Below the pieces are notes generated by a model, which saw only the letters and a program-made list of their open reading frames with translations, was not told the origin of the DNA and made no database searches. The position numbers were made by a program, and so were the translations under genes. Positions 5,681 to 56,538 of a DNA stretch of 62,199 nucleotides are shown piece by piece. Origin of the DNA: a virus (lineage: Duplodnaviria > Caudoviricetes); the IMG/VR virus record IMGVR_UViG_3300043449_001468, positions 1-62,199 of that record. The stretch is one strand, 5' to 3'. The first letter of the stretch is position 1. Every line of letters starts with the position of its first letter.

Positions 5681-6850
5681 ATGCAGCCTTGGCAACATGG
5701 ATTTGAATTGAGCGACCTCAAACAGCTTGAGAGCTTCTATGCTCCCCATAATCAGTATGCCCTTTCGGTGTTTGGGAAATTTAAGAAAAACGATATCGCT
5801 GCCCATCTACATGAGCAGACCCTCAAGTTATTCAATGAAACGGGCAGTGGACCTGCGGCGGCCATGGTCGTGGAACAGTCTAAGGTGCCCAGTAAGATCA
5901 CCATGTTTGGAAAGACAGTCATTGGGCATAAGATGAAAGGAGATATCACAGTGTCTCGTTTAGTGGGTGATCCTGGGATACTGAAAGACTCCCTCCATAC
6001 ACTCACGGAAGATTGTTGGCTCATCACCTACGCCGGAAATTCCCCCATCCGTCAGCTGGCCGTACAATCCGGATTTGATTATGTTGGACATAAGATCACC
6101 TCATTTTCTGAAATCTACGCTGTCTATTTTCGCAATGGATATTCAAGTACGAAACCTAGAGAACACCCCACCGTGAATCCAGCAGAGTTGGTGTCTATGG
6201 CAAAAATCTGTGACGTAGACACCGAGGTAATAGAAGCAATCCTGAATAAACTCCAACTATTGGCCCCAACATTTACCAACCATTACAGCAACTACAACAC
6301 GATGAATGCATGGTCGGCTATTGCACTGCGCGGCTATCTGCCCGATCCAGGATTTATCACCAAACCCCAGGAGATGAGTGATAAGTGGATGAGGGAGCAA
6401 AAAGAACAAGATTTTTTTATGCAGGATACCAATCTATATGCACAGTTCCCTGAGGTACGAGAACTGCTCTCATTTTTGGATGGAGATATCCATAGGGTCC
6501 GCTTTATGCGGCTCGCCCCAGGAGGAGGGGAATTGCAGCGACACACAGATCAAGTTGACAGAGACGCTGGAAATTCTCTCGGTCAACTGGCACGCCTACA
6601 TTTTCCATTGAAGACCAACAGTAAGGTATTGTTCAGCACCTGGAATGCCCAGGACGAAAAAGAAGATTATCATTATGGATTTGGGGAATGCTGGGTGATC
6701 GATACTCGGAAACCACATATGGCAGTAAATGGGGGTACCGAAGAACGGATTCATCTCGTTGTGGATACCATCGTGACCCCCAAACTCGAAAGGATGATCT
6801 GCGACAGTATGCCACTTCGTATTGGAGATCTCCATGGTTCCAACATATGA
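5681..6850 (+). CDS. GNAT-like N-terminal domain fused to aspartyl/asparaginyl beta-hydroxylase-type Fe/2OG dioxygenase
   Basis: C-terminal RVRFMRL.PG..L.RHTD...RLHFPL.TN...W.IDT.KPH.A.N.G..RIHLVVD is typical of the Asp-beta-hydroxylase family; the N-terminal W.....N...R.L....GF..VG resembles GNAT motif B (weaker). Confidence 0.7.
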   Translation: MQPWQHGFELSDLKQLESFYAPHNQYALSVFGKFKKNDIAAHLHEQTLKLFNETGSGPAAAMVVEQSKVPSKITMFGKTVIGHKMKGDITVSRLVGDPGILKDSLHTLTEDCWLITYAGNSPIRQLAVQSGFDYVGHKITSFSEIYAVYFRNGYSSTKPREHPTVNPAELVSMAKICDVDTEVIEAILNKLQLLAPTFTNHYSNYNTMNAWSAIALRGYLPDPGFITKPQEMSDKWMREQKEQDFFMQDTNLYAQFPEVRELLSFLDGDIHRVRFMRLAPGGGELQRHTDQVDRDAGNSLGQLARLHFPLKTNSKVLFSTWNAQDEKEDYHYGFGECWVIDTRKPHMAVNGGTEERIHLVVDTIVTPKLERMICDSMPLRIGDLHGSNI

Positions 6851-7640
6851 TGAACTAATTCGAATATATAGAAATACACTTAGCCAAAGAGGATGGCAGG
6901 ATCCAAACCCCCCAATCCAGATTGTCGAGCATGAAGGATATCTTGTGGTGCGCGACGATCTACTTGGCTATGGCAGCAAGGCACGATTTGTGGATTATAT
7001 GGTGCAAACTATGCCAGAACGGGAGATTGTCTTCGGATCATGCCCGGCTACAGGATATGCCCAGATCAGCCTTCCTGTAGTTGCGAAGCGATATGGCAAA
7101 TCAGTACATCTGTTCATGGCGCAACGAGATCTTTCTAAATTGCACCCCTATCAACAGCTAGGCGCCAAACTAGGGTCGAGGTATCATTGGGTGCCGTCTG
7201 GAATGCTCAATGTCACCAAGGCAAGGGCACGAGAGTATGCCGCAGAAGATCCTGCCAATAGAATGCTACTTCCGATTGGTCTAGAGCATCCCAGTGTGAT
7301 CGCCTCGATTATTCAGGTAGCCCATACCCAGATTCCATTCATTCCAGATCATGTGTGGTCCGTAGGATCATCAGGATGCCTGAATAGAGGACTTCAGCTC
7401 GCATGGCCGAACGCCGAGGTGCATGTGGTCAGTGTTGGGCATACCATGGGCGAGCGAGAAATTGGTCGTGCTATATATCATCGTTCTCCATATAAATTTG
7501 ATCAAATGGTCAAGAAACATGAGGCTCCCCCATTCCCAAGTGCCCCGACCTACGATGCCAAAGTGTGGGCACCGATGTGCGCCTGGTATGAGACACATCA
7601 TCGCCCAGATAAAGTATTAGTTTGGAATGTGGCCGCATAG
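6834..7640 (+). CDS. PLP-dependent fold-type II enzyme (ACC deaminase/cysteine desulfhydrase-like)
   Basis: VVRDDLLGYGSKAR Schiff-base Lys motif, VGSSG phosphate-binding loop, PTYDAK, LVWNV end. Confidence 0.75.
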   Translation: MVPTYDELIRIYRNTLSQRGWQDPNPPIQIVEHEGYLVVRDDLLGYGSKARFVDYMVQTMPEREIVFGSCPATGYAQISLPVVAKRYGKSVHLFMAQRDLSKLHPYQQLGAKLGSRYHWVPSGMLNVTKARAREYAAEDPANRMLLPIGLEHPSVIASIIQVAHTQIPFIPDHVWSVGSSGCLNRGLQLAWPNAEVHVVSVGHTMGEREIGRAIYHRSPYKFDQMVKKHEAPPFPSAPTYDAKVWAPMCAWYETHHRPDKVLVWNVAA

Positions 7641-7642
7641 GA

Positions 7643-7671
7643 TTGACATTCAACCTCAACTGTGAGATAAT
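7643..7671 (+). promoter_or_regulatory. sigma70-type promoter (TTGACA-N17-GATAAT), probably giving a leaderless mRNA
   Basis: Boxes visible; ATG 7679 lies 7 nt after the -10 box with no SD. Confidence 0.65.
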
Positions 7672-7678
7672 GTAGATT

Positions 7679-9262
7679 ATGGACAAACAATGGTACTACG
7701 AGCGCAACACAGAATTAATGGCATCTCCTGTTAATCGCACCTTTGAAGAACTCCTATGGATGACACAAGACGAATTCCGTCAATGGGTCGTTGATCTTCG
7801 CAAGACCGTGGTGCAACTGTGGGACGAGAAGGGTCAACCTCCTCGTGTTGGTTACGACACCGCCGAGATCATCGAACAGTTTCAGAACATGGAACCCACG
7901 GTCGTTCAAGCATTCGAGCAACTTGACGAATATACTGGGACGAAGGATGTGATTCGATGTACCTCAAATTTAGGGAATGCGGTCAATCAATTTTTTCCTT
8001 CGATGATGGCCACCAGAATCAATTATACCAAGGATCCTAACGCAGGAAAATCTATCTATGATTATTTTGCAAGACCTGAACTCCTAGAGACATTTATCAA
8101 GTACGCCACGCGGCATTTTAAGCGCGACAGTTTCTATCATTTTTCCCGCACCCTAGGTGCATCCGACATCTCCAAATATGGGGTGTTGCCTGTTGCGGCA
8201 ACGGGGAAAGAGTGGATTCTTGAATTTGAATCTGGGCACTATCGCAGCAAAGGATGGGACTATTGGTTGGCTCCTCGTGAAGAGGATGCCACCTATACCG
8301 GCTACAACGAAGAACTCAAGGGGAAGCAATATCTTCGGGTATCCAAAGATGAGATTGAAACTCTCGGTGCCACGATTCCAGACAAATGCAAGACCAATGT
8401 GGATTGGTCCAAGGGAGAATCCTATACGATCCGTGTGTTTGAGCGAGGCAACCGAGTATTCCCCGCTGGACTCAAGGCATTTCGGGTCTCATTCAGCCAA
8501 TACGCGGTGAATTGGCCACCATTGGCCGCAAAATATATTTACGAACGCTATACCGAACCATGGAAAAAAGAATCTACCATCTACTGTTGGGACCCATCAA
8601 GTGGATGGGGAGGTCGTCTACTTGGCGCCATGTCTGTCAAGGATGATCGTCACATTACCTATCTGGGCAATGACCCCAATACCGATCATAACACCACCCC
8701 AGGAAGAACGAAATACCACGAGATCTACGATTTCTATCGAACCCATGTGCAGAAAGGTGGGCTGTTCGGCGCAGAACATACAGGCTTCAAATTCTGGCAA
8801 CTAGGCTCTGAGGTGATGCAGTTTGACCCAGACTTCCAACAGTACAAAGGGAAGTTGAGTCTGGTGTTTACCAGTCCACCGTATTTCAGTAAAGAGCGAT
8901 ATTCAGAAGATCCTGCCCAATCTTGTATCAAATTTGATACATATGAGGCGTGGCGAGACGGTTTCCTCACGGAAACACTCAGAACGGCCTATGGGTGGCT
9001 ACGACCCGGAGGAATCATAGCGTGGAACATTGCCAACGCTACATTTGGCGGAATTCGTCTACCCCTTGAAACGGACTCTTGCAGTATACTCAATTCATTG
9101 GGCATGAAACACATCGAAACCCTCAAGCTCGCGTTGGCTCAAATGCCCGGAGGAAACAGAATAGATTCAACATCAGGAATTCCGAAAACTGAACACTTTT
9201 GCAAAGTGAACAATCTCTGGCTGAAATATGAACCTATACTAATTTGGAGGAAGCCTCTTTGA
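7679..9262 (+). CDS. DNA amino-methyltransferase-fold protein (N4C/N6A type) with long N-terminal extension
   Basis: SAM-binding DPSSGWGG (8591) followed by catalytic TSPPYF (SPPY at 8873); KYEPI C-terminus. Confidence 0.8.
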   Translation: MDKQWYYERNTELMASPVNRTFEELLWMTQDEFRQWVVDLRKTVVQLWDEKGQPPRVGYDTAEIIEQFQNMEPTVVQAFEQLDEYTGTKDVIRCTSNLGNAVNQFFPSMMATRINYTKDPNAGKSIYDYFARPELLETFIKYATRHFKRDSFYHFSRTLGASDISKYGVLPVAATGKEWILEFESGHYRSKGWDYWLAPREEDATYTGYNEELKGKQYLRVSKDEIETLGATIPDKCKTNVDWSKGESYTIRVFERGNRVFPAGLKAFRVSFSQYAVNWPPLAAKYIYERYTEPWKKESTIYCWDPSSGWGGRLLGAMSVKDDRHITYLGNDPNTDHNTTPGRTKYHEIYDFYRTHVQKGGLFGAEHTGFKFWQLGSEVMQFDPDFQQYKGKLSLVFTSPPYFSKERYSEDPAQSCIKFDTYEAWRDGFLTETLRTAYGWLRPGGIIAWNIANATFGGIRLPLETDSCSILNSLGMKHIETLKLALAQMPGGNRIDSTSGIPKTEHFCKVNNLWLKYEPILIWRKPL

Positions 9263-9848
9263 GCACAGGACATTTCCATCCCTTGTGTGATTTTCTGAGC
9301 CCACGGGCGACAGACCACATATGGCCCACATTCAATCCATGAAGTTTGCAGAATCCATTCAAGTTTTTTATTTGTATGACATTCCCACTAGGAGTTACTA
9401 ACTCCCAATGTTTATCTTTTTTTCCCGATATTGACTTTCGAACTTTCTCGATATGTTCCTGGGTCTGGGCTCCTGTTTTTACTCCTTTATTCCAAGGAAT
9501 TCTTCGTTTGAACTTTGCGATGGTATCTGGGGAATGCCTGAATCCTATTTGACCTTCTCCTCCATACGACATATTATATCCCTTACCTGTAGAATAATGA
9601 CTCTGATATAATCGTATGAAATACCCCTCCATGATGTTCAATGTGAAATCTGGGTCGGATGATTCGTATTCTATCGACCACTCAAATTGATCAGCCCCAT
9701 ATTTCTTGATGGCCTGATGAAACACCACCCCTGTGGGTCGTCGTGAGGATTCCCATATATGCTGATATCTCCTATTTGGCCAAGCCGAATCGTATCCTAT
9801 GTAGATTTTCCCATTTACCTTATTCGTGGCTTTATAAATAACTGGCAT
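9234..9848 (-). mobile_element. free-standing GIY-YIG homing endonuclease with NUMOD3-like repeats
   Basis: VIYKATNKVNGKIYIG, GYNMSYGGEG, HSPDT, PWNKG; the only convincing minus-strand gene; overlaps the MTase 3' end. Confidence 0.9.
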
Positions 9849-10386: not shown

Positions 10387-12645
10387 ATGTACACGGTAGA
10401 AACTAAGAGCATGTTGGCCAAACTCATGGCGTCTGAGAATATTCGAGTGGAACATAGAACTGCCAAGACGGCCTCGTTCAACACAGAGACTCGCACATTG
10501 ATCTGCCCAATCTGGAAAGATATGACTGGAGACATCTATGATCTTATGCTAGGGCATGAGATTTCCCATGCCCTGAACACTCCCCCCGAAGGATGGCATG
10601 ATTCTATTGTGTCTGCCGGTACGGGTGAGTCGGCAGCAAAGTCGGAACAGATGGCGTTCAAACACTTCTTGAATGTCGTGGAAGATGCCCGCATTGAAAA
10701 GCTCATTAAGCGTCAATATCCCGGCCTTCGACGCCCTATGATTATTGGATACAAGGAATTCCTGGCTCGCGATTTTTTTGGACTTTCGGCCATTTCAGAC
10801 TTCAACTCGCTCTATCTCATCGATAAGTTGAACCTGGCCGCTAAGTGCGGCACGTTGGTGAACATTCGATTCACTTCACAAGAACAACCGTACTACGATG
10901 CCCTGATGTCCACGGAAACATGGGAAGAGGTAGTCGCTCTCGCAAAGCGACTCTATGACTACAGTAAAACTGAGCAACAACAAGGCGAGAAGAAAAAGCA
11001 ACAATTGGCGGATCAACTTGTCGAGGACTTGGAAGAGGGCGAGCAAGAAGAGGACTTGGAAGAGGGCGAGCAAGAAGAGGACTTGGAAGAGGGCGAGCAA
11101 GAAGAGGACTTGGAAGAGGACGAGCAAGAAGACCCCTATCACCCCGAAGGTGAGGGAGACCTCGATATGGAGACTGGGGGTGCTAATGAGGGTGGAGAAG
11201 GGGAGGGGGACTTTATCCCCAAGGCAAAAACCGATGAGGCATTCCGAAACTCGGAGCATAAGCTTGTGGAACAGGCCGACCTTGTGACCCGTTACCTCAA
11301 TATTCCTACTCCTTCTCTTGAGCATATCGTAGTGCCCGCCGAGGTCGTCAATGCGACACTGACTCAGGCGTTCAGTTCGCACACCTCTGTTGGGAACGCT
11401 CTCTTGATGGAGTTTAAGAAGAAGAACGAGGATTATATTGCTCTGTTGGCCAAGGAATTTGAGATGAAAAAGGCCGCGGATTCCTATGCAAAATCTAAGA
11501 TTTCTGACTCTGGCGATATCGATATCAACAAACTAGCCAATTACCGACTAGAGGATAACATCTTCCGCAAGACGATCTTGGCACATAAAGGGAAATCTCA
11601 TGGACTAGTATTGTTACTCGACAAATCCTCATCTATGACCTCGCATATCAAAGGGAGCATCGAACAAATATTGGTGTTAGCGATGTTTTGTCGCAAAGTC
11701 AACATTCCGTTTGTGGCCTATGGGTTTACTTCTATATATCATAGTTACAATGTGGTCCAGGATTCTACGCAGCAATGGAGCAGAAATCCCGATGACCTCT
11801 CCATGAATGGGTGTCGCATGCGGGAGATCATCAATTCGAGAATGTCGGCCGATAAATTCAATCGGGCTCTTGCGAATCAATTGATACTCGCTGCCCATTA
11901 CGTTGGCGACCCACGAATATCCGCCTACTGGGGATCTATTCCAGAGGAGGAAAAATTACACTCCACACCACTACATCAGGCCTTGGTGGCGAGTCGAGAT
12001 CTTATTCGGCAATTCAAACGAACACATCGATTGAACATTGTCAATATGGTGATTGTGCATGATGGAGAGGCAGATTCAACATCTAAAGCAATTTCAAGCC
12101 ATGACACACGCTTCAATGTGCCCCCTATGACCTACATGTTCAATGAACGCTATGAGAGGGTAACGCTATTGGACACAAAAGAAAATCTGTCGATACCCGT
12201 GCCTCAGGAGTCCCGTGGGCTCACCATTGCCCTCATGAAGTGGGTGCAGTTGACTACTGGATGTGGGATCTTTGGGTTCTACATTACCGGAACTTCGGGG
12301 CGTAACGCGAATCGATGCATTATAGATCTTTACCAGAATAAGCATGGAGTCGCCTTGGGGAGTTCAAGTCGAATAAATGATAATAATGCTGATCGTATGC
12401 TCCTGATCGACAGTCTGAAGAAGAAATTGATCGAGGAGAAATTTCTGGAGTCATTCACCAGCGGATACACTCGGTTTTATTTCATTCCAGGAGCCAGAGA
12501 TTTGGAGATTCCCTCCTCAGGGATTCAGGACACGGGGGTCAAGTGGACTCCATCACGTTTGTTGACAGCATACAAAAAAGCTGGGCGCAAAAAGCACATT
12601 AGCCGTGTATTAGTAACACGATTCATTGACTTAATTGCAGTGTAG
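10387..12645 (+). CDS. HEXXH metallopeptidase-like / acidic linker / VWA (CobT-like) protein
   Basis: GHEISH, NVVEDARIE, acidic repeat linker, MIDAS LLDKSSSM ... STPL ... HDGE; upstream of CobS as in T4-like cyanophages. Confidence 0.85.
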   Translation: MYTVETKSMLAKLMASENIRVEHRTAKTASFNTETRTLICPIWKDMTGDIYDLMLGHEISHALNTPPEGWHDSIVSAGTGESAAKSEQMAFKHFLNVVEDARIEKLIKRQYPGLRRPMIIGYKEFLARDFFGLSAISDFNSLYLIDKLNLAAKCGTLVNIRFTSQEQPYYDALMSTETWEEVVALAKRLYDYSKTEQQQGEKKKQQLADQLVEDLEEGEQEEDLEEGEQEEDLEEGEQEEDLEEDEQEDPYHPEGEGDLDMETGGANEGGEGEGDFIPKAKTDEAFRNSEHKLVEQADLVTRYLNIPTPSLEHIVVPAEVVNATLTQAFSSHTSVGNALLMEFKKKNEDYIALLAKEFEMKKAADSYAKSKISDSGDIDINKLANYRLEDNIFRKTILAHKGKSHGLVLLLDKSSSMTSHIKGSIEQILVLAMFCRKVNIPFVAYGFTSIYHSYNVVQDSTQQWSRNPDDLSMNGCRMREIINSRMSADKFNRALANQLILAAHYVGDPRISAYWGSIPEEEKLHSTPLHQALVASRDLIRQFKRTHRLNIVNMVIVHDGEADSTSKAISSHDTRFNVPPMTYMFNERYERVTLLDTKENLSIPVPQESRGLTIALMKWVQLTTGCGIFGFYITGTSGRNANRCIIDLYQNKHGVALGSSSRINDNNADRMLLIDSLKKKLIEEKFLESFTSGYTRFYFIPGARDLEIPSSGIQDTGVKWTPSRLLTAYKKAGRKKHISRVLVTRFIDLIAV
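11023..11130 (+). repeat. 27-bp in-frame tandem repeat x4 (EDLEEGEQE)
   Basis: GAGGACTTGGAAGAGGGCGAGCAAGAA three identical copies plus a fourth with one substitution. Confidence 0.95.
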
Positions 12646-55846: not shown

Positions 55847-56538
55847 ATGTTGGTATGAATGATGCGGTTAAATTATTGGACCATGGGCATGTGCGATTGG
55901 TGGATCATATGGGCTCTGACCTCTCGATTGTTCGATCTGCCCGGGTGAGTTATAACGCCGAATGGCGCTCAGGTGAAGATGAAGGTAAAGATTCCAAGTT
56001 GATCAATTATCTGATCAAGAATCGACACACCACACCTTTTGAATCGGTAACATTTACCTTTGAGGTGAAGGCGCCTATCATGGTCTTTCGCCAATGGCAC
56101 CGCCACAGAACGTGGGCATATAATGAGGTCTCCGCACGATACACAGAGTTGCCTGAGGAATACTATATCCCTGCCCTAGAGGTAATCACTTTACAGTCGG
56201 CGAGCAATAAACAAATGCGAACTGATGAATTGCATCCCCAGGGAGAACTGATTCGCAAGATCATGCGAGAATCAAACGAGCGATCCTTTGCGGCCTATAA
56301 ACAATTATTGGGTATTGGGTGCCCCAGAGAACTGGCGCGTTCGGTATTGCCCGTGGCTACATACTCACATATGTTTGCCACCACAAATTTACACAACATG
56401 CTGCATTTCCTGGGTCTCAGATGCCATACCCATGCTCAACATGAAATCCGAGTCTATGCAGTCGCCATGTTAGAACTCATTCGCCCAATTGTCCCTGTGA
56501 CGATTGCGGCATGGGAAGAACATTACAACAAGAAGTAA
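55843..56538 (+). CDS. thyX: flavin-dependent thymidylate synthase
   Basis: ARVSY, H.TPFE, RQW.RHR....NE.SARY, E.AR.VLP, AQ.EIR. Confidence 0.95.
   Translation: MNVGMNDAVKLLDHGHVRLVDHMGSDLSIVRSARVSYNAEWRSGEDEGKDSKLINYLIKNRHTTPFESVTFTFEVKAPIMVFRQWHRHRTWAYNEVSARYTELPEEYYIPALEVITLQSASNKQMRTDELHPQGELIRKIMRESNERSFAAYKQLLGIGCPRELARSVLPVATYSHMFATTNLHNMLHFLGLRCHTHAQHEIRVYAVAMLELIRPIVPVTIAAWEEHYNKK

Follow-up and report, generated by a model that had tools for sequence, protein, structure and literature searches.

To our knowledge, the hypermodifications of phage DNA described so far are attached at C5 of pyrimidines, at C7 of deazaguanine or, in phage Mu, at N6 of adenine. In Mu the adduct is N6-carbamoylmethyl-adenine, made by Mom, an iron-requiring protein of the GNAT fold. 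Here we analyse three adjacent genes of a tailed phage (Caudoviricetes) from the IMG/VR record IMGVR_UViG_3300043449_001468, in a stretch of 62,199 nucleotides (positions 1 to 62,199 of the record, hereafter the window). They encode a hydroxylase of the Fe(II)/2-oxoglutarate (2OG) type (ORF1), a very divergent protein of the fold-type II class of enzymes dependent on pyridoxal phosphate (PLP) (ORF2), and a protein of the amino-methyltransferase (MTase) fold that binds S-adenosylmethionine (SAM) and carries an SPPY motif (ORF3). The three genes are functionally linked. They most likely build an undescribed decoration of DNA bases, i.e., they form a phage DNA hypermodification cassette, and there is a fair chance that its chemistry belongs to a class new to DNA.

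Four described pathways resemble parts of this cassette. In the caprazamycin and muraymycin pathways, as given in the available part of the source, a SAM-derived 3-amino-3-carboxypropyl (acp) chain is placed on a nucleoside amine, and is β-hydroxylated by Cpz10 or decarboxylated by the PLP enzyme Mur23 (PMC9814697). Cpz10, an Asp/Asn-hydroxylase-like Fe/2OG enzyme, is a detectable homologue of the dioxygenase domain of ORF1. However, the acp transfer is made there by a PLP enzyme (Mur24 or Cpz13), with no MTase-fold protein in the portion of the source that describes it (PMC10491745), the substrate is a free nucleoside and not DNA, and the PLP enzymes have no detected homology to ORF2. In the microcin C pathway, following the same partial source, the MTase-fold SAM enzyme MccD puts acp on a nucleotide derivative, which the PLP domain of MccE then processes (PMC10491745). 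The acceptor in that case is a phosphoramidate oxygen, the PLP domain is a decarboxylase, there is no hydroxylase, and MccD (5FCD) is not among the 40 listed chains of the top 50 PDB fold ranks of ORF3. MccE also carries a GNAT domain. In the wybutosine pathway the acp chain is hydroxylated by TYW5, a 2OG/Fe hydroxylase. It is Tyw2 that transfers acp from SAM to the base with a Rossmann fold, according to the accessible part of PMC10491745, but the substrate is tRNA, the attachment is at carbon and there is no PLP enzyme. The thymidine hypermodifications of phages are alike in being amino-acid-like adducts put on DNA after replication and tailored in a modular way, by PLP enzymes among others (PMC8989533, available part), and an ORF1 homologue lies beside the gene of an amino-acid:DNA transferase (ADDT) in phage LilMcDreamy. 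They differ from our locus in that no ADDT was found in the window, and in that the core here is an amino-MTase fold that would be aimed at an exocyclic amine instead of thymine C5.

Among enzymes that act on exocyclic amines, Mom shares with our proposal a non-methyl adduct on N6 of adenine, but has no SAM, PLP or 2OG components. The classical N4-cytosine and N6-adenine DNA MTases (N6_N4_Mtase, Eco57I-type) share with ORF3 the Rossmann SAM fold, the glycines of motif I, the acidic residues of motifs II/III and the (S/D/N)PPY motif. ORF3 differs from them by scoring below the Pfam cut-off, by an N-terminal extension of about 280 residues, by a family-specific ExY...QS signature, and by its linkage in many genomes to PLP and hydroxylase proteins. 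A literature search, which extended to articles and not to supplementary tables (e.g., of PMC13229309 and PMC8989533), returned no description of the trio, of a fusion between a PLP protein and a DNA amino-MTase, or of acp in phage DNA. These families go unmentioned in the available parts of the paper on thymidine hypermodification (PMC8989533) and of the T-dioxygenase paper. The source names of the relatives are all "hypothetical protein", save one non-descriptive MGnify tag.

The strongest evidence for the linkage comes from gene fusions. In gp1 of Erythrobacter phage R6L, a ParB domain is followed by MTase motif I, a PALP domain, motif IV in the form FSCPPY and the rest of the MTase, i.e., the PLP domain is inserted inside the MTase (a gene of the phosphoadenosine phosphosulfate (PAPS) reductase family lies near this fusion gene). 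The search for longer relatives of ORF2 returned seven proteins: four triple fusions with the order MTase, N-domain plus hydroxylase, PLP (P0122, P0123, P0124 and P0126), two MTase-PLP fusions (P0125 and P0128) and one hydroxylase-PLP fusion. P0124 is named by nr as a protein of Nitrosomonas nitrosa. The triple fusion had no match in cellular genome contigs, and the PLP protein matched only three contigs of metagenome-assembled genomes there. An exhaustive profile search with the ORF2 family gave 1364 cluster representatives, the best 150 of which were analysed further. Thirty-three of these have at least 350 residues, and an ORF3-type MTase was found in 17 of them, in three arrangements; a hydroxylase was found in one, and in the other 15 only the PLP domain was recognised. 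Pfam scans of 20 of the 33 agree with these assignments. Four representatives (P0133, P0156, P0171 and P0228) have, in place of the MTase, an N-terminal region with a weak, sub-threshold likeness to Pfam YunG.

The linkage is also apparent in gene neighbourhoods. We searched IMG/VR separately with each protein as seed. The ORF1 seed returned 32 loci, 24 of which encode an ORF3-family protein (tblastn, E ≤ 1e-5); half of the eight loci lacking one are truncated near the hydroxylase gene. With profile hidden Markov models (HMM), an MTase match was found at up to 6 kb in 25 of the 32 loci, 20 of which also have a PLP homologue, although the MTase HMM also picks up a second, classical MTase and the tblastn count is cleaner. 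The pairing occurs in two syntenic settings, either between gp46/peptide deformylase and CobT, as in the window, or between the gp44 clamp loader and the gp43 polymerase, which argues against mere inherited synteny. The adjacency to peptide deformylase is missing in the second of these settings. In Microcystis phage Mae-JY30, an ORF3-family MTase is encoded immediately upstream of an ORF2 homologue. The first-pass annotation, made from the sequence of the window, had proposed that the three genes work as one cassette and had named a neighbourhood survey as a check. The survey found the three families together across many uncultured phages, and the conservation in two contexts, together with the fusions, strongly supports one cassette instead of chance neighbours.

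The partners of the MTase vary. The ORF3-family search matched at least 576 IMG/VR stretches, and we kept the best 80 loci. Thirty-five loci were dropped because of short flanks, and 41 had flanks of 4.5 kb or more upstream and of 1.5 kb or more downstream. Twelve of the latter encode both partners, 10 the PLP protein only, four the hydroxylase only and 15 neither; these counts are approximate, since the 15 loci of the last class were surveyed only within about 4.5-7 kb and one contig (G011) has a PLP homologue elsewhere. Complete genomes show the MTase alone (G009), with the PLP protein (G008) and with both partners (G012), and the 80%-complete contig behind locus L005 encodes MTase and hydroxylase with no PLP protein. 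The MTase is therefore the core, and the PLP protein and the hydroxylase are optional. The invariant residues of the MTase are identical across all four partner classes of the 41 loci. Hence, its chemistry is probably alike everywhere, with the partners acting afterwards, and the mix-and-match of partners around an invariant MTase fits one core transfer followed by optional tailoring.

Several related loci carry additional genes. In one (L022, 9112-11493), genes for an NAD-dependent epimerase/dehydratase and a PAPS-reductase-family protein lie within the hydroxylase-PLP-MTase cassette. In the lineage of L016-L021 and L023 (e.g., L016, 7387-13343), a JmjC-type cupin precedes the hydroxylase, and downstream of the MTase come a small methyltransferase of class I and a further 2OG-Fe(II) oxygenase; such proteins may perform extra tailoring steps. 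A second type of cassette (group 2, e.g., L028, 831-7041) encodes an ORF3-like MTase of about 334 residues, sometimes a 2OG oxygenase, the hydroxylase, a PALP protein and a classical N6_N4 DNA methylase (3e-22), with a hexapeptide-repeat acyltransferase a few genes downstream. In L039 (2986-5303) and L040, which have the same gene order, the ORF1 homologue directly follows a gene of the saccharopine-dehydrogenase family (Sacchrp_dh_C, 1.5e-19), the ORF2 homologue lies 6.5 kb downstream, and no ORF3-type MTase is found within the locus. The saccharopine-dehydrogenase family includes carboxy(nor)spermidine dehydrogenases, which put a 3-amino-3-carboxypropyl group on an amine.

The three genes lie on the + strand of the window, where the first-pass annotation had placed them. 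ORF3 (7679-9262, 527 aa) has an N-terminal extension (residues 1 to about 280) followed by a class I SAM-binding amino-MTase domain in which motif I precedes motif IV, an order that is permuted relative to the Pfam N6_N4_Mtase model. Motif I (DPSSGWGG, residues 305-312) lies within CWDPSSGWGGRLLGAM (nt 8585-8632), and is followed by D332, E378 and the SPPY motif (residues 399-402, in FTSPPYF) within FTSPPYFSKERYSEDPAQS (nt 8861-8926). D305, G309, D332, E378 and S399-P-P-Y402 are conserved without exception in the 19 aligned sequences and in all 41 further loci; G311 is nearly invariant (at least 90% of the 19-sequence alignment and 39 of the 41 loci, the other two having Ala). The family-specific invariants ExY...QS lie downstream of SPPY. 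ORF3 itself scores 24.5 bits with N6_N4_Mtase (PF01555), below the cut-off of 26.7, whereas most of the 120 listed relatives have a precomputed match to this family. Its structure model has a predicted local distance difference test (pLDDT) score of 78, and its PDB matches are class I methyltransferases, including the tRNA N2-methylguanosine (m2G) enzymes Trm11 and TrmN; the best fold matches among viral models are proteins annotated as N4-cytosine DNA MTases. From motifs and modelled fold, ORF3 is thus a SAM-binding SPPY amino-methyltransferase fold, as the first-pass annotation had read it, with an extension closer to 280 residues. The extension had no Pfam match at E ≤ 10, nor had two N-terminal regions of short forms, and it matched only unnamed viral clusters in the ESM-Atlas (scores up to 0.85). 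A prediction of the complex of ORF3 and ORF2 with SAM and PLP scored 0.00, which gives no verdict, and was not used either way.

ORF2 (6822-7640, 272 aa) starts at a TTG codon, with an alternative ATG at 6834, and its start overlaps the end of ORF1 by 29 nt. The protein itself has no Pfam match, including to PALP (PF00291), but it matches phrog_7093, annotated "threonine dehydratase" (2e-34), and its homologues in phages R6L and Mae-JY30 exceed the PALP cut-off (40.6 and 46.3 bits). Because a PDB profile search with the ORF2 family gave one chance match only (E = 0.43), we traced its homology through a sister family. In a second group of phages, a different protein of 285 residues (sister family A2) takes the place of ORF2 beside the hydroxylase, and a member of A2 matches PALP with 48.9 bits for a cut-off of 35. 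The profiles of the two families align over their full length with their lysines in register (hhalign, 88.8% probability, E = 2.5e-6), and the best PDB sequence matches of the A2 profile are 1-aminocyclopropane-1-carboxylate (ACC) deaminase and cysteine synthases. The Schiff-base lysine of ORF2 is K53, within VVRDDLLGYGSKARF (nt 6945-6989), and the phosphate loop GSSG spans residues 182-185. Among the best 150 of the 1364 representatives, K53 is kept in all 139 that cover this column, G185 in 143 of 145 and S/T184 in 141 of 145; RDD, R55, PP..S, YDAK and WN are other near-invariant residues, and the family motif reads PPFPSAPxYDAKxW. This conservation of the lysine, phosphate loop and family residues is the pattern of an active PLP enzyme and not of a decayed domain. 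Together with the phrog_7093, A2 and PALP matches, it upholds the fold-type II assignment proposed earlier: ORF2 is, by sequence, a very divergent fold-type II protein with the catalytic lysine, and is predicted to bind PLP.

ORF1 (5681-6850, 389 aa) consists of an N-domain (residues 1 to about 185) and an Asp/Arg-hydroxylase-type Fe(II)/2OG dioxygenase domain, matched by Pfam Asp_Arg_Hydrox (PF05118) at residues 190-363 (E = 1.7e-12, 47.9 bits for a cut-off of 22.6). The HxD motif (H288/D290, nt 6524-6562) and three further histidines (H307, H346 and H358) do not vary among the 23 aligned sequences. The AlphaFold2 model (pLDDT 92) has a double-stranded β-helix fold whose Foldseek matches include 4p7w, 7v4f and AspH. 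The top PDB match is L-proline cis-4-hydroxylase (E = 2e-12), followed by Cpz10 (7v4f/7v4o, E of about 6e-10, target template-modelling (TM) score 0.70-0.75) and human AspH. The sequence-profile search again placed L-proline cis-4-hydroxylase and Cpz10 first, the latter with E = 4.5e-7. These profile and fold matches make ORF1 an amino-acid-type Fe/2OG hydroxylase with predicted activity and substrate, and a total of 783 protein clusters match the hydroxylase. The first-pass annotation had described ORF1 as an Asp-β-hydroxylase-type dioxygenase with a GNAT-like N-domain that might acylate the adduct. The dioxygenase stands, by Pfam, fold and the HxD...H residues, whereas the GNAT likeness holds in part, as a weak statement at the level of the modelled fold: residues 1-190 had no Pfam match even at E ≤ 10, and seven of 10 ESM-Atlas structure matches are GNAT clusters but with TM scores of 0.41-0.47, below 0.5. 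A form of the acyl-CoA pyrophosphate-loop motif of GNAT proteins is Q/RxxGxG/A. A conserved loop of this kind was not found in the N-domain in the 23-sequence alignment, where the motifs conserved in the family are WQ..G/KKN, and an acylating role is thus not supported.

Our tentative proposal, to which we give a little less than an even chance, is that ORF3 moves a SAM-derived, amino-acid-like group to the exocyclic amine of cytosine or adenine in phage DNA, with later tailoring by ORF1 and ORF2. Judging from its SAM-binding residues and SPPY pocket, ORF3 is expected to bind SAM and an exocyclic amine. DNA is suggested as the target by the ParB fusions, by the similarity to Eco57I and N6_N4 DNA MTases, by the viral fold matches and by the context of the ORF1 homologue in Mycobacterium phage LilMcDreamy. 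This homologue (gp4) is the only one from a cultured phage, and lies beside genes for ParB, a TGT/DpdA-like protein, ADDT and terminase. Genes 1-4 of this phage (L003, 1-3759) encode, respectively, a ParB-like protein, a queuine-tRNA-ribosyltransferase-like (DpdA-type) protein, an ADDT-family protein annotated as hypothetical and the ORF1-like hydroxylase; the end of the LilMcDreamy genome may bring together two routes of DNA modification. PLP enzymes require a primary amine in their substrate, which is as a rule an α-amino acid. A plain methyl is therefore unlikely as the product of ORF3, since it would give the PLP enzyme no amine and the amino-acid-type hydroxylase no side chain. We propose acp since it is the sole amino-acid-like group that a SAM-binding Rossmann enzyme could deliver; Tyw2, MccD with the PLP domain of MccE, and the trio of Mur24/Cpz13, Cpz10 and Mur23 serve as precedents. 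SPPY is traditionally tied to N4-cytosine enzymes, which makes cytosine our first guess for the base.

In the scheme that we infer, from its DNA target and acp group to the order of its steps and its protective role, a cytosine or adenine would flip out and place its exocyclic amine (N4 or N6, respectively) in the SPPY pocket of ORF3, which would transfer to it the acp of SAM instead of the methyl, giving an N-(3-amino-3-carboxypropyl) base. ORF1 would next hydroxylate a side-chain carbon of the adduct, most likely the β-carbon. ORF2 would bind the α-amino group of the adduct through PLP and remodel that end, e.g., by β-elimination after hydroxylation or by decarboxylation, and the adduct would protect the phage DNA against host restriction. 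Fold-type II PLP enzymes usually catalyse β-elimination or β-replacement and not decarboxylation, so that the decarboxylase role put forward for ORF2 in the first-pass annotation is atypical of its class and found no support. The rest of that annotation's scheme, acp on an exocyclic amine, has circumstantial support by analogy, from the likeness to Cpz10, the substrate needs of PLP enzymes and the modularity of the cassette. A route by hydroxylation of an N-methyl followed by a PLP Mannich addition was rejected, because MTase-PLP pairs and fusions lacking the hydroxylase are common.

A number of observations weigh against the acp proposal. ORF3 carries every hallmark of an ordinary MTase producing N4-methylcytosine (m4C) or N6-methyladenine (m6A), no feature of its sequence indicates that Cγ of SAM is presented instead of the methyl, and it stands alone in one complete genome (G009) and in 15 of the 41 loci, as a plain methylase would, with the reach of the survey for this class of loci given above. 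The ORF2-family profile detected no homology to Mur23, Mur24 or MccE, the PDB search being without match. L-proline cis-4-hydroxylase matches ORF1 better than Cpz10, so that the parallel with Cpz10 is one of several possible. Moreover, since many loci belong to closely related phages, the counts do not represent independent events, and the searches found close homologues in no cultured phage. ORF3 might then be an ordinary N4-cytosine or N6-adenine DNA MTase, leaving only m4C or m6A in the DNA, while the PLP protein and the hydroxylase do other work in a complex (regulatory, sensing or donor-processing). The complete set of canonical motifs, the annotation of the nearest viral fold matches as N4-cytosine DNA MTases and the solitary occurrences of ORF3 all fit such an enzyme. 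Yet a methyl would leave the PLP enzyme with no substrate while its lysine and phosphate loop are strictly conserved, the PLP domain is repeatedly fused to the MTase or inserted in it, and triple fusions with the hydroxylase exist; we consider an ordinary methylase unlikely. The insertion of the PLP domain between motifs I and IV in R6L-type proteins, beside the cofactor pocket, raises a serious rival, which we judge rather unlikely: the PLP domain itself could drive the transfer, with the MTase fold mainly positioning the base and/or SAM. This could proceed by a γ-replacement of the Mur24 type on SAM bound to the MTase fold; Mur24 provides a precedent of PLP-dependent acp transfer from SAM in the available part of PMC10491745. 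It could also proceed by a β-replacement of the TrpB/cysteine-synthase type, in which ORF1 would supply a β-hydroxy amino acid and the aminoacrylate formed from it would be attacked by the flipped base amine. The resemblance of ORF1 to free-amino-acid hydroxylases, and the ACC deaminase and cysteine synthases matched by the sister family of ORF2, are in line with it. A PLP-driven transfer would, however, leave the hydroxylase idle in the four of 41 loci, and in the 80%-complete L005 contig, that have MTase and hydroxylase but no PLP protein; the MTase invariants are the same with or without PLP protein, and Mur24 is of a different PLP fold.

The target might also be something other than DNA, i.e., tRNA or rRNA bases, a protein side chain or a polyamine-like small molecule. 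Both acp and hydroxylated acp are known on tRNA and rRNA bases. Trm11 and TrmN are among the fold matches of ORF3, acp transfer to RNA has a precedent in Tyw2 (PMC10491745, available part), peptide deformylase adjoins ORF1 in the window, and in L039 and L040 the hydroxylase follows a saccharopine-dehydrogenase-family gene, which may be of a polyamine type. Against these stand the ParB fusions, the similarity to Eco57I and N6_N4 DNA MTases, the viral DNA-MTase fold matches and the place of the LilMcDreamy homologue among DNA-modification genes and terminase, whereas the adjacency to peptide deformylase is missing in the second syntenic context; we hold a non-DNA target to be improbable. That the three are unrelated auxiliary genes, neighbours merely by shared T4-like synteny, is very improbable indeed. 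Many loci do belong to related phages that share their gene order, and 2OG oxygenases are numerous in T4-like aquatic phages, but the single-polypeptide fusions in several arrangements already contradict such an account, as does the adjacency in two syntenic contexts and in unrelated siphovirus-type phages.

The window is T4-like in its gene content, with a DNA helicase (gp41-like, judged by its position), the gp55 late sigma factor, gp47/gp46, gp45, gp44, gp43 and UvsX. It also encodes peptide deformylase, a CobT-like "peptidase", CobS, dCMP deaminase, dNMP kinase and ThyX (55894-56499). The DNA polymerase has at most 48% identity to those of cyanomyoviruses. A megablast search of the cassette against the phage collection gave no match. 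Two DNA sequencing runs, and no RNA run, were listed for the stretch; one of them, labelled as a freshwater metagenome, contains it in full as judged from all sampled words and may be its source. Both the presence of ThyX and the lack of an amino-acid:DNA transferase, noted in the first-pass annotation, were confirmed: no ADDT-family protein was found in the window by a search that detected one in LilMcDreamy as positive control, nor was any found in three relatives, G006 and G008 (both complete) and G007 (70% complete). A ThyA-family hydroxymethylase had no match in the window, and TET/JBP and 5-hydroxymethyldeoxyuridine kinase were not specifically searched for. Absences from the window carry little weight, since it is a fragment estimated at about 37% of a genome.

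Some features border the cassette. The 38-nt gap before ORF3 (7641-7678) contains a near-consensus, sigma-70-type promoter-like site (7643-7671, + strand, TTGACA-17-GATAAT with an upstream TG). This is a consensus match alone (11 of 12 positions), and such sites are not in excess across the region (seven found for 10.3 expected); ORF3 may have an early promoter separate from that of ORF1 and ORF2. An ORF resembling GIY-YIG homing endonucleases (9234-9848, - strand, 204 aa, phrog_314 at 4.8e-25) is convergent with ORF3 and overlaps its final 29 nt. It looks like a mobile insertion beside the cassette, since it is missing from most related loci. The CobT-like "peptidase" (phrog_459, 10387-12645, + strand) has a tandem acidic repeat, EDLEEGEQE, in about four copies around residues 210-250, and its relatives align only to both sides of this repeat.

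The module is widespread, with at least 576 IMG/VR stretches for the MTase, besides the clusters and representatives counted above for the hydroxylase (783) and the PLP protein (1364). It is possible, although we remain rather doubtful, that the module attaches the amino-acid part of SAM to the exocyclic amine of cytosine or adenine, which would be the first DNA hypermodification of this kind. An N4- or N6-acp base would be made by a permuted SPPY "methyltransferase" and diversified by a β-hydroxylase akin to Cpz10 and by fold-type II PLP enzymes of a new clade. Hundreds of uncultured phages, T4-like and other, would then share a combinatorial set of adducts, whether plain, hydroxylated, processed by the PLP enzyme or modified in both ways. 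The single-chain fusions of MTase, hydroxylase and PLP protein (e.g., P0124 and P0126) provide a one-gene entry point for its study. If the proposal is true, the MTase-fold enzyme could be of use for labelling, since it would place a functionalised amino-acid handle at defined sites in DNA, and DNA so modified may behave oddly in sequencing and cloning. A SAM/PLP/2OG module acting on an exocyclic amine would then represent a new chemical class of DNA modification, and would give abundant phages a new route to evade restriction and CRISPR.

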